64,000 nt of DNA from Gemmatimonadales bacterium. GTDB taxonomy: Bacteria; Gemmatimonadota; Gemmatimonadetes; Gemmatimonadales; GWC2-71-9. The stretch lies in NCBI GenBank assembly GCA_035693225.1, contig DASSGV010000086.1, positions 1,335 through 65,334 of the forward strand, read 5' to 3'. Positions 3,642 to 62,036 of this stretch are shown in pieces (position 1 is the stretch's first letter; every line of letters starts with the position of its first letter). The notes beneath the pieces were generated by a model. The model was not told the origin of the DNA and searched no databases. It was given only the letters and a program-made list of their open reading frames with translations. The translations under genes and the position numbers were made by a program.

Positions 3642-3690
3642 GCGGTAAGGCGGGCGAAGCTGAAGCATCGGAGTTTCGTGTCAAGCAGAT

Positions 3691-3825
3691 CTGTCATCCC
3701 GACCCCGAGCGTAGTCAGAGGGAGGGACCTTGCCGGCGGAGTCTAGAACCTCTATGCCGACCCCGATCGCCGCGGAGAAGGTCCCTCGGGTCTGCGCCTT
3801 CGGCGCAGTTCCCTCGGGACGACAG
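3691..3825. repeat. MITE-like palindromic element, GTCATCCCGA family (variant copy)
   Basis: Termini ctgtcatcccgaccccgagcgtagtcagagggagggacc ... ggtccctcgggtctgcgccttcggcgcagttccctcgggacgacag. It is followed at 3890-3927 by the pyrimidine word array cttcttacttcttacctctcacttcttacc. Confidence 0.8.
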
Positions 3826-3928
3826 ATCGAAATGCGCCGGTCCCTCTTCCCCGCTGCGCCGCTACGCCGCTGACCCGCCCCCTAACACCCCTTCTTACTT
3901 CTTACCTCTCACTTCTTACCTTTCTCCC

Positions 3929-10802: not shown

Positions 10803-10922
10803 GGAAAACGGAAAGAGGAACGCCCCGCCCGGCAGCAACGCCAAACGGGGCAACGATTTCAGGATTATGGGCCTGGGAAGAGTTGAGCCGCAGGCGAGCG
10901 CAGCTCCACTGACGACCTCACG
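10803..10922 (-). repeat. degenerate second copy of the tRNA-Ile 3' end plus its terminator hairpin
   Basis: The 69-nt block 10818-10886 matches 10936-11004 with 5 mismatches by hand alignment (118-bp period). It includes the last 19 nt of the tRNA (TCAACTCTTCCCAGGCCCA). The fragment continues with cgacctcacgc after a 25-nt insertion that disrupts the T arm. Confidence 0.8.
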
Positions 10923-10928
10923 CGCCCC

Positions 10929-10969
10929 AAGAAACGAACGCCCCGCTCGGCAGCAACGCCAAGCGGGGC
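10929..10969 (-). terminator. hairpin plus T-rich tail immediately 3' of tRNA-Ile
   Basis: Minus strand reads GCCCCGC-(16-nt loop)-GCGGGGC followed by GTTCGTTTCTT. Confidence 0.55.
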
Positions 10970-10985
10970 AACGGTTTCCGGACTA

Positions 10986-11059
<74 letters not shown>

Positions 11060-11143: not shown

Positions 11144-11422
11144 TCACTCGAAATCGCCGCCGCCACCGCTCCGCCCGCGGCGCCCCCGCTTGGGCGGGCC
11201 TTCCTCTTCATCGGCCTCCTCGAGGTCGACCTCGTCCTCGTCGGCATCCTCATCGTCGACGTCGTCGTCCCCCTCTTCGTCCTCGTCGTCGAAGTCGTCC
11301 TCGTCCTCGTCCTCTTCGTCGTCGAAGGCAAAGCCGTCGTCCTCGAAGTCGTTCCCGTCATCGTCCAGGGGGCGACGGCGCGCTTCGATGACCTCCAGCG
11401 ACCCCTCTTCCAGGACCAGCAT
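11144..11422 (-). CDS. hyper-acidic small protein (92 aa) with basic RGG-like tail, function unknown
   Basis: AGGAGG lies 4 nt before ATG 11422. Sequence: MLVLEEGSLEVIEARRRPLDDDGNDFEDDGFAFDDEEDEDEDDFDDEDEEGDDDVDDEDADEDEVDLEEADEEEGPPKRGRRGRSGGGGDFE. GC-rich third positions on this strand. It lies between typA and tRNA-Ile on the same strand. The longer ORF to 11620 overlaps typA. Confidence 0.55.
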   Translation of the reverse strand: MLVLEEGSLEVIEARRRPLDDDGNDFEDDGFAFDDEEDEDEDDFDDEDEEGDDDVDDEDADEDEVDLEEADEEEGPPKRGRRGRSGGGGDFE

Positions 11423-14446: not shown

Positions 14447-14660
14447 AGCTAACAGCTATCAGCTATCAGCTATCGGCTACTAGCTATCAGCTATCAGCTA
14501 TCAGTGACTCCGTGCGCAATAAGAAATCGCTAAGACACAAGGGCCCCTCCCTTCAACCGACTGATCGCTGATAGCTCTTTACTGATAGCCGATAGCTGAT
14601 AGCTGGCTGCTGATAGCTGATAGCCGATAGCTGATAGCTCTGTGCTGATAGCTGATAGCT
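14447..14660. repeat. inverted arrays of the 8-nt word GCTGATAG/CTATCAGC around a ~56-nt AT-richer core
   Basis: The left arm 14447-14504 is (agctatc)n. The right arm 14561-14660 is (gctgatag)n, its reverse complement. It lies in the divergent czcD/BNR intergenic region. Confidence 0.85.
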
Positions 14661-17671: not shown

Positions 17672-19006
17672 ATGAACGCCACACCCGGCACCTCGATCAC
17701 CTTCGGGCTCGTTTCGGTCGTCGGGTTGGTCCTCGGCAACGCCTTCTTCGTGGCGGCGGAATTCGCCCTCGTCGGGCTCCGCCGCTCCCGGATCGAGGAG
17801 CTCGCCCAGCGCGGGGTGAGCTCCGCGATCCTCGCCCGCCGGGCGGTCTCCTCCCTCGACCGCTACATCTCCGCCACCCAGCTCGGCATCACTCTCGCCT
17901 CACTCGGCCTCGGCTGGGTCGGCGAGCCGGCGCTCGCGTCGCTCATCGGCGGATGGTTCACCGGCCTCCCCGCCGGATTCCAATCCTGGGCCACCCATAC
18001 GGTCGCGGCTGCGTTCGCCTTCGCCCTCATCACGGTGCTCCACATCGTGCTGGGCGAGCTGGTCCCCAAGGCGCTCGCGATCACCTTCCCTGAACGCGTC
18101 AGCGCCTTCACCATCCGGCCGCTCACCGCCTTTCTCTGGGCCATGACCGGCCCCATCACCATCCTCAATGGGGCCGCCGGCGGGATCCTCCGGCTCCTGG
18201 GCGTGCGCCGTCGCACCAGCCAGGCCTCCCTGCATTCGCCCACCGAGCTCCGCATCCTGGTCGAACAGAGCCAGCAGGCAGGAAGCCTGGGGAGCGAGGA
18301 CGCGCGGCTCCTCGAGGGGGTGTTCGAATTCAGCGAGAAGAACGCCGAGCAGGTGATGACGCCGCGCACCCAGATGACCGCCATCGAGGCCGGCTCGTCG
18401 GTCGAGGAGGCCGCCGGTGTCGTGGCCGCGGCGGGGCGTTCACGCTATCCGGTGTACGAGGGATCGCTCGATGACATCGTGGGCGTGGTGCATGCCAAGG
18501 CCATCCTCGCCGCACTGCGCGCGGGCCCGCACCAGCCGGTACGACAGGTCATGCGGCCGCCGCTCTTCGTGCCGGGAAGTCGGGAGGTGGAGGACGTCCT
18601 GACCGACATGAAGCGGGTCAAGTCCCATATGGCCGTGGTGCTCGACGAATACGGCGGGACCGCGGGGCTCGTCACGATGGAGGACCTGCTGGAGGAGATC
18701 GTCGGCCCCATCGAGGATGAATACGACCGGCCCGACCGGGTACCGGCGCCCGCGGACGGGTCGCTGGTCCTCGACGGTGCCCTGCCCATCGCCGAGGCGA
18801 ACGAACGGCTCGACTTGAGGCTCGACGACGCCGAATACACCACGCTGGGCGGATATCTCTTTGGCCAGCTCGGGCGACTCCCCGCCGTCGGCGATCGGGT
18901 GCGGGCGGGTGGCAGGGAATTCGAGATCGCCGAGATGGAGGGACGCCGGGTCAGGCGGGTGCGGGTGATGACGAAGGCGGCAGGCGAGAAGAAGAGTGAA
19001 GAGTGA
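17672..19006 (+). CDS. HlyC/CorC family transporter (DUF21 + CBS pair + CorC_HlyC)
   Basis: N-terminal TM region (FFVAAEFALVGLRRSRIEEL), a CBS pair, and a C-terminal CorC_HlyC domain. ATG 17672 follows the BNR stop. The ORF's upstream extension to 17462 overlaps the BNR gene. Confidence 0.88.
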   Translation: MNATPGTSITFGLVSVVGLVLGNAFFVAAEFALVGLRRSRIEELAQRGVSSAILARRAVSSLDRYISATQLGITLASLGLGWVGEPALASLIGGWFTGLPAGFQSWATHTVAAAFAFALITVLHIVLGELVPKALAITFPERVSAFTIRPLTAFLWAMTGPITILNGAAGGILRLLGVRRRTSQASLHSPTELRILVEQSQQAGSLGSEDARLLEGVFEFSEKNAEQVMTPRTQMTAIEAGSSVEEAAGVVAAAGRSRYPVYEGSLDDIVGVVHAKAILAALRAGPHQPVRQVMRPPLFVPGSREVEDVLTDMKRVKSHMAVVLDEYGGTAGLVTMEDLLEEIVGPIEDEYDRPDRVPAPADGSLVLDGALPIAEANERLDLRLDDAEYTTLGGYLFGQLGRLPAVGDRVRAGGREFEIAEMEGRRVRRVRVMTKAAGEKKSEE

Positions 19007-19053
19007 AGAGTGAAGAGTGAAGAGGGGGAGTGAAGAGAAAGCGTGAAGAGTGG
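18987..19053. repeat. left arm of inverted repeat (GTGAAGAG words) flanking a four-helix-bundle gene
   Basis: Sequence gagaagaagagtgaagagtgaagagtgaagagtgaagagggggagtgaagagaaagcgtgaagagtgg. It is colinear with the reverse complement of 19548-19625 and contains the corC stop codon. Confidence 0.85.
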
Positions 19054-19131
19054 AGCTGGAAGCGCGATCTTCTGCGCTGGGGCGAGCAGGAATGGTTACC
19101 CGCCGATGGGCGGCGCAGGTAAGATCGTCCG

Positions 19132-19518
19132 ATGCGTGATCATACCAGCCTGAAAGCGTGGCAGTGCGCTCGTGCCGTAGCGTTCGGGGTGCTGCGCCTG
19201 GGACGTTCGCACTGGAAACCGTGGGCGGCAACACACTTCGACCAGGCGCTTCGAGCCTCGTTGTCGGTCCAGCTCAACATCGCCGAGGGTTATGCCTTCG
19301 GGGACGGACCCACATTCGTCCGTCATCTCCGGATCGCCTATGGCTCAGCGGTGGAGACGGGGGACATCCTCGTGTTGCTCAGGGATGCAGAGGTGGCAGA
19401 CATCGAGACCCTGGCGTCGCTGATCGATGCCAATGTCGAGGGCAAGGCGTGTTTGCTGGGATTGCTCCGACGGCGGAATGGCTGGCGCCCGGCCCAAGCC
19501 GGCACCCACCGATCGTGA
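19132..19518 (+). CDS. four-helix-bundle protein (PF05635 / TIGR02436, '23S rRNA intervening sequence protein', Avd-like)
   Basis: 128 aa with a diverged family pattern: L.AWQ.A......L......W......Q.LRAS.SV..NIAEGY......F...L.IAYGS..E. Confidence 0.8.
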   Translation: MRDHTSLKAWQCARAVAFGVLRLGRSHWKPWAATHFDQALRASLSVQLNIAEGYAFGDGPTFVRHLRIAYGSAVETGDILVLLRDAEVADIETLASLIDANVEGKACLLGLLRRRNGWRPAQAGTHRS

Positions 19519-19547
19519 CGGCCAATACCTTGCCTCTCCCGTTATCA

Positions 19548-19625
19548 CCCTCCCCTTTTCACTCTTCACTTCTCCTCTTCACTCCCCCTCTTCACTTTTC
19601 ACTCTTCACTTGTCACTTCTCCCCC
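19548..19625. repeat. right arm of inverted repeat (CTCTTCAC words)
   Basis: Sequence ccctccccttttcactcttcacttctcctcttcactccccctcttcacttttcactcttcacttgtcacttctccccc. It contains the last codons and the stop of pdxA on the minus strand. Confidence 0.85.
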
Positions 19626-20518
19626 AGCACCACCGCCAGATCCAGCGCCTTCCGCATGCTCCCGGCGTCTGCCGTGCCGGTCCCTGCGATGTCGAACGCC
19701 GTGCCGTGGTCCGGCGAGGTGCGTGGGAACGGCAGCCCCAGCGTGATATTCACCCCCGCGCCGAATGCCGCCACCTTGATGGCGGTCATCCCGACGTCGT
19801 GATAGGGCGCCAGGACCGCGTCGAACTCCCCCCGCATCGCGCGGACGAAGACGGTGTCGGCGGGAAAGGGACCGGCGGCGCCCAGCATCTTCGCGGCCGG
19901 CGCCAGGATCCGTGTTTCCTCGTCGCCGAAGAGCCCCTGCTCCCCGGCGTGCGGGTTGACGGCACAGAGCGCCAGTCGCGGCGCCGGTATACCGAACCAC
20001 TCCTGCAGGGCGCGGGTCGTCACCTGGCCGGTGCGGACGATCTTGTCGGCGGTGAGGAGGACGGGCACATCGCGGAATGGCACGTGGGTGGTCACCAGGA
20101 CCACCCGGAGGGCGTCGGCGGCGAGCATCATGGCCACCGGCACATCGCCGGCCAGGTGGGCCAGCCATTCGGTGTGTCCGGCAAACGGGAAGCCGGCGAG
20201 CCGGAGGGCGTGCTTCTCCAGCGGCGCCGTCACGATGGCGTCGACCTCGCCGTTCAGGGCGAGCCGGGCCGCGGTCTCCACCGCATGGCCGGCGATCTTC
20301 CCGGCCCGGACGGCGCGAGGGCGGTCGGCGGCGCCTTCGCCGCTTCCCGCCCCCCACTGTCCGACGGCGATCCGCCGTGCCGCCGGGATCTCCGCCACCT
20401 GGTCTTCCGCCCCGACCAGCGTGATCTCCGCATCGAGCGGTGCGGCCAGGGCCCGGGAGACGATCTCCGGCCCGATGCCGCGCGGGTCGCCGAGGGTCAC
20501 GGCGATCCGCCGGGTCAC
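19613..20518 (-). CDS. pdxA: 4-hydroxythreonine-4-phosphate dehydrogenase PdxA
   Basis: Motifs GDPRGIGPEI, GHTEWLA, NPHAGE, SPDHGTAFDIAG. The GTG start overlaps the surA stop (GTGA at 20515-20518). The ORF extension to 20674 lies inside surA. Confidence 0.9.
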   Translation of the reverse strand: MTRRIAVTLGDPRGIGPEIVSRALAAPLDAEITLVGAEDQVAEIPAARRIAVGQWGAGSGEGAADRPRAVRAGKIAGHAVETAARLALNGEVDAIVTAPLEKHALRLAGFPFAGHTEWLAHLAGDVPVAMMLAADALRVVLVTTHVPFRDVPVLLTADKIVRTGQVTTRALQEWFGIPAPRLALCAVNPHAGEQGLFGDEETRILAPAAKMLGAAGPFPADTVFVRAMRGEFDAVLAPYHDVGMTAIKVAAFGAGVNITLGLPFPRTSPDHGTAFDIAGTGTADAGSMRKALDLAVVLGEK

Positions 20519-21843
20519 GGCCCGCGCACCTCGACGAAGTTGTCGCGCCGGAGTCGGGCGATATAGCGCTGGACCGCCAGCTGCTTGGCCAGCTGCGGGC
20601 GCAGCTGGTCCTCCACTTCCTCGAACTTCATCGGCCCCGCGGCGCGTCGGCCGGTCACCATCGCGAAGGCCCACTTGCCCCGCAGGGAGTCGACGGGGTT
20701 GGGCAGCTGGAACACGTCGGTCACCTGCCCCGAGTCGGCCTGGACCACCATCCGGTAGGCGGCCGGCAGCTGATCCAGCGGGATGAAGTCGAACGACCGT
20801 TCCTCGCCGGAATCGGAATAGATCCGCTGCAGGGAGTCGAACGACGCCCCGGCCAGCACCTGGTCGCGCAGCTTCACCGCGAAGGCGCGGGCCGAATCGG
20901 ACTCACCCGCCGTGATGCCCGGGGTGATGAGCACGTGGCGCGCCTCGACCTCGGTGGGCTGCACGCGCTCGACCTGGATCACGTGATAGCCGAACGGCGT
21001 CTCGACCGGGTCGGAGATGACCCCGGGCTTGAGGCGGAACGCGACGTCGTCGAAGGCGCGGACCATCTGGCCCCGCCGGAACCAGCCGAGCTCGCCACCC
21101 TGCTCCTTGGACCCCGGGTCCTCCGAAAAGCGGCGGGCCGCCGAGGCGAAGTCGCCGCCGGCACGGAGCGCCTTCGCGATCGAATCGGCGGTGGCGAACG
21201 CCACCTTGCGGGCCGCCGGTGAGGCGCGGGGGGCCACCACGATCTGCTTGAATGCCACCGAGGCCTTCCGGGCCCCCTTGTCGGCCGCCGTGTTGAAGTA
21301 GTCCCGGAGCTCGCGCTCCGTCGGCGTCACCGGCTTCAACTTCTCGTTGTCGAAGAGCGAGGAGACCAGGTGGTTCTGCAGCAGCGTCCGACGCTGCTGG
21401 TCGGTGAGCCAGCGGCGATACTCCTCCGGGGAGATGAATCCGGCCTTCTTCAGTTCGTTCTTGTAGTCCAGCTCCGAGGCGAAGCTGGTGCGGATCTGGC
21501 GGATGCGCTGGTCCACGGCGTCCGAGACGTCCTGGTCGGTCACGTGGATGGTGGTGTCACGGAGGGCCTGCTGCACCAGGAGCTCTTCGTTGATCAGGTC
21601 GTTCAGGACCTGACCCCGCAGCTTGGCCAGCGAATCCGGATCGGTGGGGACGGCTTGTCCGGCCTGCTGGTCGGAGAAGATCCGCTCCTCGACCTGCGAA
21701 CTCAGGATCGGCACGTTCCCCACCACCGCCACGACGTGATCCACCGCTTCGCCCGTGTCGCCGGGCGCCTGGGCCGCGAGCAGCAGCGGCGCCAGGCACA
21801 GTGTCGACGCCAGGGCGGCGGCGGAGAACGCGCGCATCCTCAC
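20515..21843 (-). CDS. surA: periplasmic chaperone/peptidyl-prolyl isomerase SurA-like
   Basis: Signal peptide MRMRAFSAAALASTLCLAPLLLAAQA, a SurA_N-like region, and a parvulin domain (ARHVLITPG...PFGYHVIQV). Classic surA-pdxA synteny. Confidence 0.85.
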   Translation of the reverse strand: MRMRAFSAAALASTLCLAPLLLAAQAPGDTGEAVDHVVAVVGNVPILSSQVEERIFSDQQAGQAVPTDPDSLAKLRGQVLNDLINEELLVQQALRDTTIHVTDQDVSDAVDQRIRQIRTSFASELDYKNELKKAGFISPEEYRRWLTDQQRRTLLQNHLVSSLFDNEKLKPVTPTERELRDYFNTAADKGARKASVAFKQIVVAPRASPAARKVAFATADSIAKALRAGGDFASAARRFSEDPGSKEQGGELGWFRRGQMVRAFDDVAFRLKPGVISDPVETPFGYHVIQVERVQPTEVEARHVLITPGITAGESDSARAFAVKLRDQVLAGASFDSLQRIYSDSGEERSFDFIPLDQLPAAYRMVVQADSGQVTDVFQLPNPVDSLRGKWAFAMVTGRRAAGPMKFEEVEDQLRPQLAKQLAVQRYIARLRRDNFVEVRGP

Positions 21844-33350: not shown

Positions 33351-33440
33351 GCGCAGGGGCGGAGAGACGCAGGGGCGGAGAGGCGGGTGGACGCAGTAAG
33401 GCGCGTGGACAGGCGCGTGAGGCGCGAGGGTGGAGCGGAG

Positions 33441-39565: not shown

Positions 39566-39593
39566 CCGCAGGGGCGCAGGGACGCAGGGGCGG

Positions 39594-40859
39594 ATGGGCG
39601 CACGGGCGGACGGGCGCACCAGCGGACGGGCGCGGGGGCGCAGGGGGCTCGGCTTGCTGGTCGGGTTCATCCTGGCGACCGCCTCCGTCGCTGCGCCGCT
39701 CTGCCTCTCCGCCCAGGGCACCATCCAGCAACGGATGCAGGACTCCCAGAAACGCCTCCAGCAGATCCGGGCGGAGCGGGAGCGCCTCCAGCAGCAGCGT
39801 TCCGCGCTCCAGGGTCAGGCGCACGACGTCGAGTCGGAACTCGTCAACATCACCCGCCAGCGGGACGCCACCAACCGCATCGTCAACGAACTCGACCGCC
39901 AGATCGGCGGCCTCAACCAGGAACTTGACCAGGTGAGCGGGAGCCTGGCACTGGCGCAGGACAACCTGGCCGACAAGCGCGCCGTGCTCTACCGGCGCCT
40001 GGTGGACATCTACAAACGCGGACCACTCTACGACTTCCAGGCACTCCTCGCCGCGGAATCCTTCGGCGACCTGGTGAGCCGGTTCAAGTACCTGTACCTG
40101 GGCAGTCGGCAGGATCGGCAGCTGGTGTCCGACGTCGAAGGGCTGCGTGACCGCGTCAATCGCCAGCGCGACGACCTGCTCAACTACCGCGCCAGCCTGA
40201 CCCGCTCACGGGAGGAACGGGACCAGGAGCTCCAGCACTACGGCGACCTGGCCGATGACCAGCGCTCCCGGCTCCGGGACGTACGACGCGACACCCGCAG
40301 CACCGAGACCCGGCTCACGGCGCTCCAGCAGGACGAGGAGGCGCTCAACACCCTCATCGCCACGCTGGAACGCGCCCGGCGCGAGGCCGCGGCCCGCGCC
40401 GCCGCCGCCCGGGCCTCCGGCCGCCGGGTGGCCCCCCCTGCGTCATCGATCACCACCGCCAGCATCGGGAAGCTGGGCTGGCCGATGGACGGCACGGTCC
40501 TCTACGGCTTCGGCACCGACGCCCTCAATTCCGGCGCGGTCATCAAGCACAACGGCATCGCGATCGCCGCGCCACCCGGCACCCCGGTCAAGGCGGTCGA
40601 GGCCGGCACGGTCGAGCTGGTCCAGCCGCTGGGCACCTACGGTCTCTCGGTCGTGCTGAGCCACGGTGGCGGCTACTATTCGATCTACTCCCAGCTCTCG
40701 ACGTCCTCGGTCACCAAGGGACAGACGGTCGTCCGGGGCCAGATGATCGGCACCTCCGGCGGCGCCAACACCGACGAGGGCCCCCACCTCTACTTCGAGA
40801 TCCGCGGCGAGAACGGTGTCGCACTCGACCCGACCGAATGGCTCCAGCGAAGAAAGTGA
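39594..40859 (+). CDS. M23/LytM-domain murein hydrolase activator (EnvC-like)
   Basis: Coiled-coil N-half, then an M23 domain (GWPMDG, HNGIAIAAPPGTPVKAVEAGTV, GLSVVLSHGGGYYSIYSQL, PHLYFEIR). The start is ambiguous (ATG 39558, ATG 39594 or later) because the 5' end runs through a G-rich word array. Confidence 0.85.
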   Translation: MGARADGRTSGRARGRRGLGLLVGFILATASVAAPLCLSAQGTIQQRMQDSQKRLQQIRAERERLQQQRSALQGQAHDVESELVNITRQRDATNRIVNELDRQIGGLNQELDQVSGSLALAQDNLADKRAVLYRRLVDIYKRGPLYDFQALLAAESFGDLVSRFKYLYLGSRQDRQLVSDVEGLRDRVNRQRDDLLNYRASLTRSREERDQELQHYGDLADDQRSRLRDVRRDTRSTETRLTALQQDEEALNTLIATLERARREAAARAAAARASGRRVAPPASSITTASIGKLGWPMDGTVLYGFGTDALNSGAVIKHNGIAIAAPPGTPVKAVEAGTVELVQPLGTYGLSVVLSHGGGYYSIYSQLSTSSVTKGQTVVRGQMIGTSGGANTDEGPHLYFEIRGENGVALDPTEWLQRRK

Positions 40860-41716
40860 CCACGGGCGAACTCCTCGGCGCCCACGTATCCACCGCCGGC
40901 GGGCCCCAGACGGCGCCGCCGCGTGGCGTCGACATCGGCGCCACCGCCATCCAGCTCTTCACCAAGACCCCGAACCAGTGGCGGGAACCGGTCCTCTCCG
41001 ACGAGACGATCGCCGCTTGGCGGAAGGCGTGGACGGAGAGCGGGCTCGGTGTGGCGGTGTCCCACGACAGCTACCTGATCAACCTCGCGTCCCCCGACGC
41101 GGCGCTGCGCAAGCGATCGATCGCCTCCTTCACCGCGGAACTCACCCGCTGCACCCAGCTCGGCATCCCGTACGTGGTGTCCCACCCCGGCAACTTCATG
41201 GACGACCGAGACCAGGGGCTCACCCGGAACGCCGCGGCGTACGCCGAGTGCCTCGAGTCGGTGCCAGGACCGGTGATGGTGCTGATGGAGACCACCGCCG
41301 GCACCGGCACCGCCCTCGGCAGCACCTTCGAGGAACTGGCGGAGCTCCGGGCCCGGATGCCCAAGGCGGTCCAGGCGCGGGTCGGGTACTGTGCCGATAC
41401 CTGTCACATCTACGCCGCGGGATACGACCTCGTCGGCGACTACGACGGCGTCTGGGAACGCTTCGACCGGAGCTGCGGGCTCGAACGGCTCCGCTGCCTC
41501 CACCTGAACGACTCCAAGACGCCGTTCAACTCCCATCGTGACCGGCACGGACTGATCGCGGAGGGATCGCTGGGGGCCGAACCCTTCCGCCGCATCATGA
41601 ACGACCCGCGGATGACCGGCGTGGCCAAGATCCTGGAGACCCCGAAGAGCGAGGATATGGTGACCAACGACCGGAAGATGCTGGCAAGACTGCGGGGGTA
41701 CGTCGGGAAGAAGTGA
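40838..41716 (+). CDS. nfo: endonuclease IV (AP endonuclease family 2)
   Basis: LGAHVS..GG, HDSYLINLAS, VSHPG, ETTAG and CADTCH motifs. It overlaps the preceding gene by 22 nt. Confidence 0.92.
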   Translation: MAPAKKVTTGELLGAHVSTAGGPQTAPPRGVDIGATAIQLFTKTPNQWREPVLSDETIAAWRKAWTESGLGVAVSHDSYLINLASPDAALRKRSIASFTAELTRCTQLGIPYVVSHPGNFMDDRDQGLTRNAAAYAECLESVPGPVMVLMETTAGTGTALGSTFEELAELRARMPKAVQARVGYCADTCHIYAAGYDLVGDYDGVWERFDRSCGLERLRCLHLNDSKTPFNSHRDRHGLIAEGSLGAEPFRRIMNDPRMTGVAKILETPKSEDMVTNDRKMLARLRGYVGKK

Positions 41717-41935
41717 GAAGTAAGAAGTAAGAAGTGAGAAGGAAGAAGTGAGAGGGGAGAGGTAAGAAGTGAGAAGTGAGAAGGGATAGTGAAGGGTGAA
41801 AAGTGAAGAGTGAAGGGTAGTGACGAGTGAAGAGCGAAGAGTAAGAAGCGAGGAGCCCAGGTTTTCGCCGCCCGCTTGTCCCTTCTTACTTCTCACTCTT
41901 AACTCGTCACTTCTCCCCCCCTCCCCCTTCCCCGA
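41714..41935. repeat. purine word array (GTGAGAAG/GTAAGAAG/GTGAAGAG) ending in a hairpin with its pyrimidine complement
   Basis: gtgacgagtgaagagcgaagagtaagaag (left) versus cttcttacttctcactcttaactcgtcac (right) shows 4 mismatches in 29 by hand. The loop is about 30 nt. The nfo stop TGA is the first word. Confidence 0.8.
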
Positions 41936-45628: not shown

Positions 45629-47220
<1,592 letters not shown>

Positions 47221-47227
<7 letters not shown>

Positions 47228-47390
47228 ACGGTCGCGTAACTGATCGCGTGAAAGAACGCGTAACTGATCGCGTGGACGGCCGCGTGAGAGTCGTGTAACT
47301 GATCGCGTAAGAGAACGCGTAACAGAACGCGTGAAAAGCCGCGTGACTGATCGGGTGAAGAGCCGCGTGACTGATCGCGTGGACGGCTGC
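47221..47390. repeat. left arm of inverted repeat (CGCGTAAC/TGATCGCG/TGA.. words)
   Basis: Sequence cgcgtgaacggtcgcgtaactgatcgcgtgaaagaacgcgtaactgatcgcgtggacgg... The pckA stop lies in the first word. Confidence 0.85.
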
Positions 47391-47456
47391 GCGGAAATGA
47401 TCGGTATCGGGTGATTTTGGTTGCCGGTGGGTGGGGGTGACCCGATAACTTGGGGG

Positions 47457-47807
47457 ATGGACCCCTACGAGCGCTTCGACGCGTGGACGCGATCGCACGA
47501 ACTGGCCGTTGCGGTGCACCGCGCTACCCGGAACTGGCCGCCGGACGAACGCTTCGGGCTCGTTGCCCAGGTGCGCCGAGCGGCCTTTTCAGTCCCGGCC
47601 AATATCGTCGAGGGACGTGCCAGAAGGGGGCCCAAGGAATTCCGCCGGTTTCTCGACATCGCGTGGGCGTCGCTCGCCGAAGTCGGTTACACTCTGCGAT
47701 ACGCACACGATGTGGGTTACTTGACGCCTGAAGCACACGCCGAGCTCGAGCACGCACGGGCAAAGGCCGGCCGATCGCTCTACGCCCTGCTTCGCAATAT
47801 GAGTTGA
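47457..47807 (+). CDS. four-helix-bundle protein (PF05635 / TIGR02436, Avd / 23S rRNA IVS protein family)
   Basis: MDPYERFDAWTRSHELAVAVHRATRNWPPDERFGLVAQVRRAAFSVPANIVEGRARRGPKEFRRFLDIAWASLAEVGYTLRYAHDVGYL is a close match to the family consensus. Confidence 0.9.
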   Translation: MDPYERFDAWTRSHELAVAVHRATRNWPPDERFGLVAQVRRAAFSVPANIVEGRARRGPKEFRRFLDIAWASLAEVGYTLRYAHDVGYLTPEAHAELEHARAKAGRSLYALLRNMS

Positions 47808-47813
47808 GCTTTG

Positions 47814-47928
47814 CGCGGTCAGTTACGCGATCACTCACGCGATCATTCACGCGGTCAGTTACGCGATTATGTACGCGGTCAGTTACGCGATCACCCACGC
47901 GATCAGTTACGCGCCATTTCACCCGATC
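47814..47928. repeat. right arm of inverted repeat (CGCGATCAGTTACGCG words)
   Basis: Sequence gcgcggtcagttacgcgatcactcacgcgatcattcacgcggtcagttacgcg..., the reverse complement of the left-arm words. It ends within ~10 nt of the HD-gene ATG. Confidence 0.85.
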
Positions 47929-47936
47929 CGTCCCCC

Positions 47937-61456: not shown

Positions 61457-62036
61457 CGAGTGGTGAGTGGTGAGTGGCGAGAGGCGAGTGGCGAGTGGTG
61501 AGTGGCGGGTGGCGGGTGGCGGGTGACGAGGGGTAAGGCGTGCGCCAATGAACTGTCATCCCGACCCCGAGCGGCGCGAGGGGGAGGGGCCTTCTCCGCT
61601 GGCCCTCGAACTGGACGACAGTGATTAGTGCGAGTGGCGAGTGGCGAGAGGCGAGGGGTAGGGGGTGCACCAATGAACTGTCATCCCGACCCCGAGCAGC
61701 GCGAGGGGGAGGGACCTTCTCCACTGGCCCCCGAACTGGGCGACAGTGATTAGTGCGAGTGGCGAGAGGCGAGAGGCGAGTGGCGAGGGGCGAGGGGTAG
61801 GGAGTGCGCCAATGAACTGTCATCCCGACCCCGAGTAGCGCGAGGGGGAGGGACCTTCTCCGCTGGCCCCGGATCGGGCGGCACCGGTCCGATGTTGACG
61901 GACAAGGTCCCTCGGTCGGCGCTGCCTCCCTCGGGATGACAGCACATTGTAAGCACGGCCCCCGCGACTCACGCCCACGACCCACTCACCACTAACCACT
62001 CTCCACTCGCCACTCGCCACCAACCACCCGCCACCC
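61457..62036. repeat. composite repeat: GCGAGTGG/GCGGGTGG word arrays + 3 tandem MITE-like half units + closing MITE end + complementary CCACTCGC word array
   Basis: ccaatgaactgtcatcccgaccccgag recurs at 61545, 61670 and 61809 (periods 125 and 139). The closing end ggtccctcggtcggcgctgcctccctcgggatgacag finishes at 61942. The right array 61966-62036 is made of the reverse complements of the left-array words. Confidence 0.85.

Follow-up and report, generated by a model that had tools for sequence, protein, structure and literature searches.

A small gene for a four-helix-bundle protein lies in the loop of a long inverted repeat between the convergent genes corC and pdxA in a 64,000-nucleotide stretch of a Gemmatimonadales genome (GenBank contig DASSGV010000086.1, positions 1,335 to 65,334; hereafter the window). 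The arrangement recalls the intervening sequences (IVSs) of 23S ribosomal RNA (rRNA), which have been known since 1993 to carry open reading frames (ORFs). The original prediction, made from the letters of this DNA, described a single element; we find that it is one of a large class with a second copy in the window. We give an about even chance to the reading that the class is an autonomous, invertible IVS-type hairpin cassette that lives outside rRNA. The element and its two neighbours are laid out as follows.

17672..19006, plus strand: CNNM/CorC-like transporter gene (Pfam CNNM, CBS and CorC_HlyC); its last ~5 codons and TGA (19004-19006) lie within the left arm
18987..19053, plus strand: left arm, ~9 GTGAAGA-type heptads, purine-rich, 48% GC, each unit with a TGA
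19054..19131, plus strand: leader of 78 nt from the arm to the start codon, with a -10-like TAAGAT at 19120-19125 (-12 to -7 from the A of the ATG)
19132..19518, plus strand: four-helix-bundle gene (PF05635/TIGR02436, S23p family), 128 aa, isoelectric point (pI) 9.6
19519..19547, plus strand: short trailer from the stop codon to the right arm, read from the sequence
19548..19625, plus strand: right arm, heptads of CTCTTCA type, reverse-complementary to the left arm (sequence, repeat finding)
19613..20674, minus strand: pdxA (4-hydroxythreonine-4-phosphate dehydrogenase), maximal ORF (PF04166 301.8 bits, TIGR00557 318.9 bits); its last codons lie within the right arm

The 444-aa CNNM/CorC-like gene model was borrowed from a contig of the identical strain (L171). 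The arms are colinear, as a hand alignment had suggested: a repeat finder places them at 18995-19068 and 19544-19617 (74 nt, 81% complementary, spaced 475 nt apart), so the coordinates predicted for them were right to within ~8 nt. In Tandem Repeats Finder, the arms show up as arrays of period 7 (18991-19052 and 19555-19618). The word GTGAAGAGTGAAGAG, with up to two mismatches allowed, is found 14 times in the window where 0.1 would be expected, a ~140-fold excess. Because the irregular GGGGGA interruption of the left arm is mirrored in the right arm as TCCCCC, the arms are inverted copies of one another and more than two arrays of one word. When 18980-19630 is folded as RNA, a long arm-arm stem closes the structure on both strands (plus, -317 kcal/mol, z = -5.7; minus, z = -10.6), and 0 of 20 shuffled sequences were as stable, which bears out the proposed hairpin. 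Rfam at its gathering thresholds finds no RNA family in or near the element, and its sole match in the 64-kb window is one tRNA. A scan for intrinsic (Rho-independent) terminators found no terminator-like site in 18800-19800.

The element was also expected to supply the ends of both flanking genes, and it does. The stop codons of the convergent neighbours fall inside the arms, at 19004-19006 (TGA) on the left for the CNNM/CorC-like gene and at 19613-19615 of the minus strand on the right for PdxA. Their K/E/S-rich C-terminal tails, which end in GEKKSEE and LGEK, are translated purine-rich array and are missing from orthologues without the cassette. Since such K/E/S/G-rich tails are array translation and are found where the cassette is present, we conclude that the cassette provides both gene ends.

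Profile searches place the ORF at 19132-19518 in the predicted family, above both cut-offs (PF05635, 54.3 bits against 33.8; TIGR02436, 53.1 bits against 24). An AlphaFold2 monomer model, with a predicted local distance difference test score of 90.5, contains four helices (4-26, 30-55, 60-85 and 91-114), and its best Foldseek matches in the PDB are Xcc0516 (2gsc) and BT_0352 (2rld), with template modelling (TM) scores of 0.73-0.86. A homopentameric toroid is a hallmark of the PF05635/S23p family. The conserved family motif is GxxRxxxSxxxNxxE (PMC3936711); its residues R41, S45, N49 and E52 are invariant in our alignment of homologues (A1), and the first position is Q38 instead of glycine. The four-helix-bundle proteins are basic (pI 9.6-9.8). 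The ratio of nonsynonymous to synonymous substitution rates is 0.14 between the window and a second contig with the same junction (L081) and ranges from 0.03 to 0.32 over comparisons, so these ORFs are real genes under purifying selection. PADLOC matched neither four-helix-bundle protein to a defence system, and a tblastn search of the 64-kb window with the first ORF returned only the ORF itself. By analogy with its relative Avd, the protein probably binds nucleic acid.

The second cassette in the window (47221-47928) sits between pckA (45629-47227) and an HD-domain gene (from 47811), and its neighbours are co-directional, not convergent. Its parts are these.

47221..47381, plus strand: left arm, ~13 units of the 12-nt word CGCGTRANNGAN (Tandem Repeats Finder, sequence)
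47457..47807, plus strand: second four-helix-bundle gene, 116 aa from the publicly annotated ATG (PF05635 102.5 bits); the ORF is open from 47421
47814..47928, plus strand: right arm, reverse-complement 12-nt words (Tandem Repeats Finder, sequence)

The second protein is 32% identical to the first in alignment A1 and 100% identical to a public protein (P0121). The region 47215-47935 folds with z = -7.4.

Beyond the window, related soil bacteria carry the unit too: a metagenome scan with the homologue alignment yielded 80 loci with proteins of 50-66% identity. We compared the inverted repeat that brackets each gene with 400 random 360-nt intervals from the same clade, using the 65 loci whose gene was flanked on each side by 120 nt or more. 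The bracketing repeat exceeded the 99th percentile of the control in 52 of the 65 (control maximum 15, real median 24). Most of the 13 loci below the threshold are artefacts of ORF extension past the stop codon, and all six that were inspected have arms. The geometry is stereotyped: 61-130 nt (typically ~75) separate the upstream arm from the start codon, and the downstream arm mostly lies 0-30 nt after the stop. According to the third-codon-position GC (GC3) heuristic for orientation, the neighbours are mostly convergent on the cassette, a statement that is only approximate because the heuristic mis-called both the window and L081. Most homologues of both four-helix-bundle genes lie on contigs of only 0.5-3 kb, consistent with the arrays breaking short-read assemblies; metagenomes therefore under-sample the contexts of the family.

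In 47 of 56 loci, the arms are arrays with a period of 7 or 14. Phased on GTRA, the heptads share the consensus G-T-R-A-R-(C/A)-(G/A), and the distance from one GTRA motif to the next is exactly 7 nt in 334 of 381 cases. Since each heptad includes a TGA or TAA and a 7-nt step shifts the reading frame, all three frames are stopped in 37 of 52 loci when the arrays are read inward from both sides; read outward, this is so in none of the 52.

Related arrangements occur in other phyla. PF05635 genes of cyanobacteria (Pseudanabaena, between cas6 and cas4; Calothrix; Plectonema) and of Anaerolineales are flanked by GCTRANN heptads, with AAAGCTA and TTAGCTG words beside the genes on Pseudanabaena, Calothrix and Plectonema DNA. 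A tblastn search against plasmids gave two matches, both cyanobacterial. On the Pseudanabaena galeata plasmid pPg_01 (L180, 1260-1960), an inverted TTAGCTN array is followed by ~15 AAAGCTA heptads, the PF05635 ORF and ~10 direct AAAGCCA heptads; either direct array is a potential pairing partner of the inverted array upstream, making alternative structures possible. PF05635 genes in cas loci had been noted before and left unexplained (PMC3936711).

The corC-pdxA junction allows the cassette to be followed through its presence and absence. Convergent pdxA and corC are syntenic across Gemmatimonadales. In ~25 species representatives the junction is empty, with the two ORFs overlapping or stopping 2-30 nt apart and no space for a hairpin. 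In genomes that bear the cassette, the stops lie 550-760 nt apart (~600 nt in the window), and PdxA and CorC have short, K/E/S/G-rich tails. Homologues 93%, 76% and 56% identical to the first protein occupy the same junction, and every one is flanked by complementary purine/pyrimidine heptad arrays. The comparison of relatives that the original prediction called for thus upholds the link between gene and arms: all relatives with the gene at this junction keep the arrays, and many others are empty. A hidden Markov model (HMM) of close homologues detected the gene at only one of 80 species-representative pdxA loci (L029, beside hisZ); presence and absence are therefore read from gap sizes together with metagenome contigs.

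The gap between pdxA and corC also holds other things: hisG-hisZ, a glycosyltransferase gene, or ORF-less heptamer hairpins (AGGACTG, GCAGTAA, GAGAACG). ORF-less hairpins of this kind lie downstream of pdxA at L013, L046, L063 and L072. At the junction in L077 (6072-6515), a reverse-strand ORF with markedly low GC scores 119.8 bits on PF13366, the PDDEXK_3/GxxExxY nuclease family. Inverted words of its own (ACAGATTACACAGATG-like) enclose it; PF13366 is a second gene family residing in hairpin loops.

Could the cassette be a selfish mobile element, or the remnant of one? The arms would then be terminal inverted repeats, the protein would aid mobility, and the all-frame stops would be an adaptation that makes insertion into gene 3' ends harmless. 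Ralph and McClelland reportedly raised a mobile-element idea for IVSs, and that hypothesis has a place in the literature (cited in PMC4990558). The empty sites with overlapping stops at a conserved junction are what such an element would leave, and the same gene subfamily is found at at least nine different junctions, always with arms. The PDDEXK_3 gene in its own inverted repeat at the pdxA-corC junction of another genome and the lower GC3 of the ORF (0.73, against 0.83-0.88 in the flanking genes) point the same way. However, near-identical copies are lacking in the 64 kb of this genome that was searched: the two cassettes of the window encode proteins only 32% identical and have different arms, and the pdxA-corC cassette has been inherited long enough for its protein to diverge to ~50% identity. 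The cassette encodes no transposase, integrase or recognisable nuclease, and its protein is under strong purifying selection without a known catalytic motif. A target-site duplication is not definable, because the empty-site relatives are too diverged (PdxA at most 78% identical) to mark the insertion boundaries. A mobile-element origin of the class is plausible, though there is no sign of recent transposition; as an account of the cassette itself we consider this reading decidedly unlikely.

The window contains further arrays of short words that carry no ORF. The hairpin formed by 14447-14505 and 14561-14660 has AGCTATC/GATAGCT heptad arms (59 nt, 88% complementary) around a 75-nt loop; it lies upstream of a BNR/sortilin gene, its stop-containing strand reads outward, a polarity opposite to that of the cassettes, and its word AGCTGAT recurs at 1173-1248. 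At 41709-41915, a ~140-nt array of GTGAGAA, GTAAGAA and GTGAAGA heptads begins directly 3' of the stop of an AP-endonuclease-like gene, with a short arm complementary to it at 41881-41915; this may be a cassette minus its gene, or a solo hairpin. At 61457-62036, CGAGTGG/CCACTCG heptad arms (53 nt, 83% complementary) surround three tandem 125-nt units (61505-61870), each with a GTCATCCCGA...GAGGGACC element. At 39567-39652, 33352-33440 and also 1001-1036, GC-rich words of 8 or 9 nt (CGCAGGGG ten times, CGCAGGGGCGGAGAGA and AGGCGCGTG) form solo tandem arrays that start immediately 3' of stop codons and have no inverted partner close by. CGCAGGGG is also the arm word of two cassettes of a second subfamily (subfamily 2) in other genomes, L183 and L186.

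These arrays raise a simpler explanation, in which slippage-prone intergenic hairpins are a generic feature of the clade, serve as 3'-end or terminator structures, and came to lie on both sides of the gene by chance. ORF-less inverted and solo arrays are indeed common in the window (14447-14660, 41709-41915, 61457-62036, 39567-39652, 33352-33440), and the heptamer hairpins 3' of pdxA at the four loci named above have no ORF either. Chance placement is hard to reconcile with an association between gene and arrays that approaches 100% in each of two subfamilies and is found again in three other phyla, with the fixed spacing from arm to ATG and from stop to arm, or with random intervals of the same clade that never attain the observed inverted-repeat scores. 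We regard the generic explanation as highly unlikely.

The arms evolve together. Between near-identical strains of the window's organism, the left arm differs by exactly one heptad, as expected from replication slippage. The orthologous pdxA-corC group alone uses six heptad tails (AAA, AGA, GAA, ACA, ACG, GCG), and in 36 of 41 loci from four orthologous groups a locus-specific tail is common to both arms. The two arms thus undergo concerted evolution. Because tails diverge between loci yet agree within a locus, either complementarity or the identity of inverted sites must be maintained, at the level of RNA or of DNA. Mismatches between arms show no strand bias: 65 would be compatible with G:U pairing in the sense strand, 72 in the antisense strand, and 90 are of other kinds.

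The main rival to a hairpin cassette takes the DNA side of that alternative. It holds that the arrays are protein-binding platforms on double-stranded DNA (an operator, an insulator or a centromere-like site), bound cooperatively by the four-helix-bundle pentamer or a host factor, and that the complementarity of the arms is a by-product of inverted arrays of sites. Conservation of the G-T-R-A core at a strict 7-nt spacing goes beyond plain complementarity; the arrays sit immediately before the inferred promoter, the proteins are basic, some phyla have direct instead of inverted arrays around the ORF, and the mismatches lack an RNA-specific wobble bias. All of this would suit a DNA platform. 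Yet we know of no demonstration that a PF05635 protein binds DNA sequence-specifically, the word tails vary freely among orthologous loci while the protein is conserved, and subfamily 2 uses unrelated 8- or 12-nt words. There is a precedent in the omega protein (ParB/repressor) of plasmid pSM19035, whose sites are runs of 7-10 contiguous heptads of the form 5'-WATCACW-3', arranged either directly or inverted (PMC9499535, PMC2441792). Like the cassette arrays, the omega sites are contiguous 7-bp units with a TCAC/GTGA core beside promoters (PMC9499535, PMC2441792). Omega, however, is a ribbon-helix-helix protein, and the cassette arrays form a long complementary pair around a gene, so the resemblance is an analogy only. 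The same architecture as the cassette's is, moreover, known as an RNA stem in the rRNA IVS (PMC4990558). Overall, the platform model seems to us unlikely.

Comparison of loci also revealed that the cassette inverts. When the window is compared with L081, its flanks match the minus strand at 89-90% identity, while 18992-19624 matches the plus strand, with the breakpoints of the inversion within the arms. The orientation of the window is found in nine independent public assemblies and that of L081 in three. The fetched loci fall into nine groups by orthologous flanks; both orientations occur in seven of these, and no pairwise relations are inconsistent. The pdxA-corC group is the clearest, with 17 of its 40 loci in one orientation and 23 in the other. 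For the four largest groups, parsimony on gene trees puts the minimum number of flips at 2, 4, 1 and 2. Adding one for each of three small groups and one in subfamily 2 (L183 against L186), the cassette has inverted relative to its conserved flanks at least 13 times. The flipping is evolutionary and not seen within populations, since the nine contigs of the window's strain share one orientation and the three of the L081 strain share the other.

Recurrent inversion with breakpoints in the arms might suggest a programmed switch, a form of phase variation in which each flip decides which neighbour's read-through is sense or antisense to the gene. Gene calls on the syntenic contigs, however, reveal no cognate invertase or recombinase gene among the neighbours, and each strain is uniform in orientation. 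RecA-mediated recombination between 30-75-bp inverted repeats is a sufficient explanation for the flips, and a programmed switch strikes us as scarcely credible.

The loop probably also contains a promoter for the gene, a feature absent from the original prediction. In 24 of 52 unique homologous leaders, a TANNNT box starts at -12 or -11 relative to the start codon, whereas all other offsets have counts of 0-3. By eye, boxes of the same type appear in subfamily 2 (TAACTT, TAGCGT, TACTAT, TACGGT), and the Chloroflexota and cyanobacterial examples have TATAAT and CATAAT. This placement is the one required if the transcript starts at the A of the ATG, and it suggests that the gene is transcribed from its own promoter in the loop as a leaderless mRNA. 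An alignment of the leaders contains no convincing -35 element and no conserved RNA structure.

Together, these features fit our preferred reading, that of an autonomous IVS-type hairpin cassette. We propose that the unit consists of a GTRANNN heptad array, a ~75-nt leader with a -10 box, a basic S23p/PF05635 gene and a complementary array right after its stop. Read-through transcripts from either neighbour would include the two arms, which would pair as a double-stranded stem of ~60 bp. The TGA or TAA in each heptad would release ribosomes at the foot of the stem, from either side and in any frame, so that the stem could form wherever the cassette sits. By analogy with the Coxiella rRNA IVS, RNase III may then cut the stem; cleavage would form the 3' ends of the flanking mRNAs and insulate the four-helix-bundle gene, itself expressed from its own promoter. 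The arms would change by replication slippage and could be kept complementary through template switching or gene conversion, and recombination between them would flip the loop. Such flips would be harmless, because the unit is symmetric and has its own promoter. On this proposal, the 23S rRNA IVSs that carry this ORF would be members of the class that landed in an rRNA helix.

Several observations weigh against the hairpin cassette as we have drawn it. Similar arrays without an ORF occur in the same genome, so the arrays are not exclusive to the four-helix-bundle gene. The arms of subfamily 2 are 8-nt GC-rich words without stops, and the rule of stops in all frames fails there. The place of the complementary array varies in cyanobacteria and Chloroflexota, where it can precede the ORF, follow it or do both, and direct flanking arrays also occur; an ORF in the loop is therefore not universal for the family. 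The absence of a G:U bias means that there is no positive signature favouring selection for RNA pairing over a DNA-level process. A scan for the canonical sigma-70 consensus detected no promoter at the element. If the mRNA does start at the ATG, the upstream arm is outside the gene's own transcript, and the stem can matter only in read-through RNA or in DNA. Finally, the orientation calls come from mostly short-read assemblies that span inverted repeats, a caveat even though the arms are imperfect and shorter than a read.

To our knowledge, no explanation has been given for the origin of ORF-bearing IVSs or for what the S23p/PF05635 protein does, and genes annotated as 'four helix bundle protein' without context number in the thousands. 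Our results indicate that the IVS architecture is the normal habitat of this gene family outside rRNA, in Gemmatimonadales and, in related arrangements, in cyanobacteria and Chloroflexota. The rRNA IVS would then be recast as a special landing site of a general cassette. S23p IVSs in 23S rRNA were known; what is new is the S23p-bearing IVS-type element in intergenic DNA, as a widespread class. The GTRA heptad, the stops in every frame, the internal leaderless-type promoter, the concerted arms and the recurrent inversion are testable features, which make the old IVS/S23p question experimentally approachable. There are practical consequences as well: the cassettes break short-read assemblies, leaving many homologues on contigs of 1-2 kb, and they can append spurious K/E/S-rich tails to neighbouring gene models.

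A bolder and, we think, unlikely extension would unite all of these arrangements. Under it, arrays of heptads (or 8- to 12-nt words) and the pentameric four-helix-bundle protein form one ancient portable module, in which the protein binds its own arrays as RNA or DNA, the stop-studded complementary arms insulate the module, and it flips freely and spreads slowly between hairpin sites. ORF-bearing rRNA IVSs, the cyanobacterial short tandemly repeated repetitive (STRR) arrays beside 'S23' genes and perhaps the interaction of Avd with RNA in diversity-generating retroelements (DGRs) would descend from it.

Other repeats in the window lie apart from the cassettes. A dispersed palindromic element with the core (T)GTCATCCCGA(G/C)C..AGCGAGGGACC occurs at 1065-1170, 3690-3830, 6701, 33441 and 61555-61940, and exact matches to GTCATCCCGA number 11 in the window against 0.4 expected. 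It usually forms its own hairpin, adjoins short-word arrays in intergenic DNA, and is present in another genome (L033); it is a family of the clade that resembles repetitive extragenic palindromic (REP) sequences. A 69-nt direct repeat (10818-10886 and 10936-11004, 93% identical, 118 nt apart) has its second copy ending in or beside the window's single tRNA gene (10986-11059, minus strand). At 11202-11372 there is a degenerate 9- to 33-nt periodicity of TCGTCC/TCCTCG, whose other strand would encode a long acidic, D/E-rich stretch of low complexity.

The closest known relative of the cassette is the 23S rRNA IVS of the Leptospira, Coxiella and Xanthomonas/Brucella type. In the literature searched, we found no account of the array-flanked architecture outside rRNA, the nearest being that of the Coxiella IVS (PMC4990558). 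The Coxiella element has an ORF of the same family and a 28-bp terminal inverted-repeat stem, whose 5' arm contains two or three GACAGAT heptamers in a copy number that varies between strains; in vitro, RNase III cuts the stem at the first heptamer repeat (PMC4990558). Like such IVSs, the cassette has a PF05635 'S23p' ORF in the loop of a terminal-inverted-repeat stem, tandem heptamers of variable copy number and a size of ~430-650 nt (PMC4990558). The predicted IVS-like geometry in a protein-coding intergenic region is thus matched in ORF family, stem and heptamers. Unlike the IVS, the cassette stands between two protein-coding genes instead of in helix 25 or 45 of 23S rRNA, and the window contains no rRNA. 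Its arms are longer (~60-75 nt, against 28 bp in Coxiella) and give stops to the flanking ORFs, and its ORF is under purifying selection, whereas the Coxiella ORF is reported to be decaying and not expressed.

Avd, the DGR accessory protein, is a more distant relation. It shares the four-helix-bundle fold (Foldseek 4dwl and 8ub7, TM ~0.7) and is likewise small and basic, but only 12% identical. The bAvd model PF22296 does not match the first ORF and gives the second 21.4 bits, against a cut-off of 40. Gene calls with Pfam on the syntenic contigs place no reverse transcriptase among the neighbours, which encode Mfd, two rotamases/SurA, PdxA, CNNM and BNR/sortilin proteins, and 9000-30000 (10 kb to either side) contains no direct repeat of at least 45 nt that could be a template/variable repeat pair. 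With neither of these and no match at the bAvd level, a DGR was rejected. Of the label 'Avd/IVS-family', the IVS-type S23p part stands; the Avd link is distant, no DGR is present, and the first protein is closer to non-DGR S23p proteins than to Avd.

Two families of intergenic repeats complete the comparison. The cyanobacterial STRRs have been described as generic repeats without an assigned function. Like the cassette arms, they are intergenic tandem heptamers, and the examples given here lie directly beside PF05635 genes; the words and the host phylum differ. We found no paper in the literature searched that links STRRs or heptamer repeats to PF05635/S23p outside rRNA. With REP sequences, bacterial interspersed mosaic elements (BIMEs) and miniature inverted-repeat transposable elements (MITEs), the cassette has in common hairpin-forming repeats between convergent 3' ends and polymorphism of presence and absence. 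Unlike those palindromes, it carries a conserved protein gene with a putative promoter of its own. REP-type elements are copies of one dispersed consensus, whereas the cassettes have no near-identical copies and their arms are tandem arrays specific to each locus.

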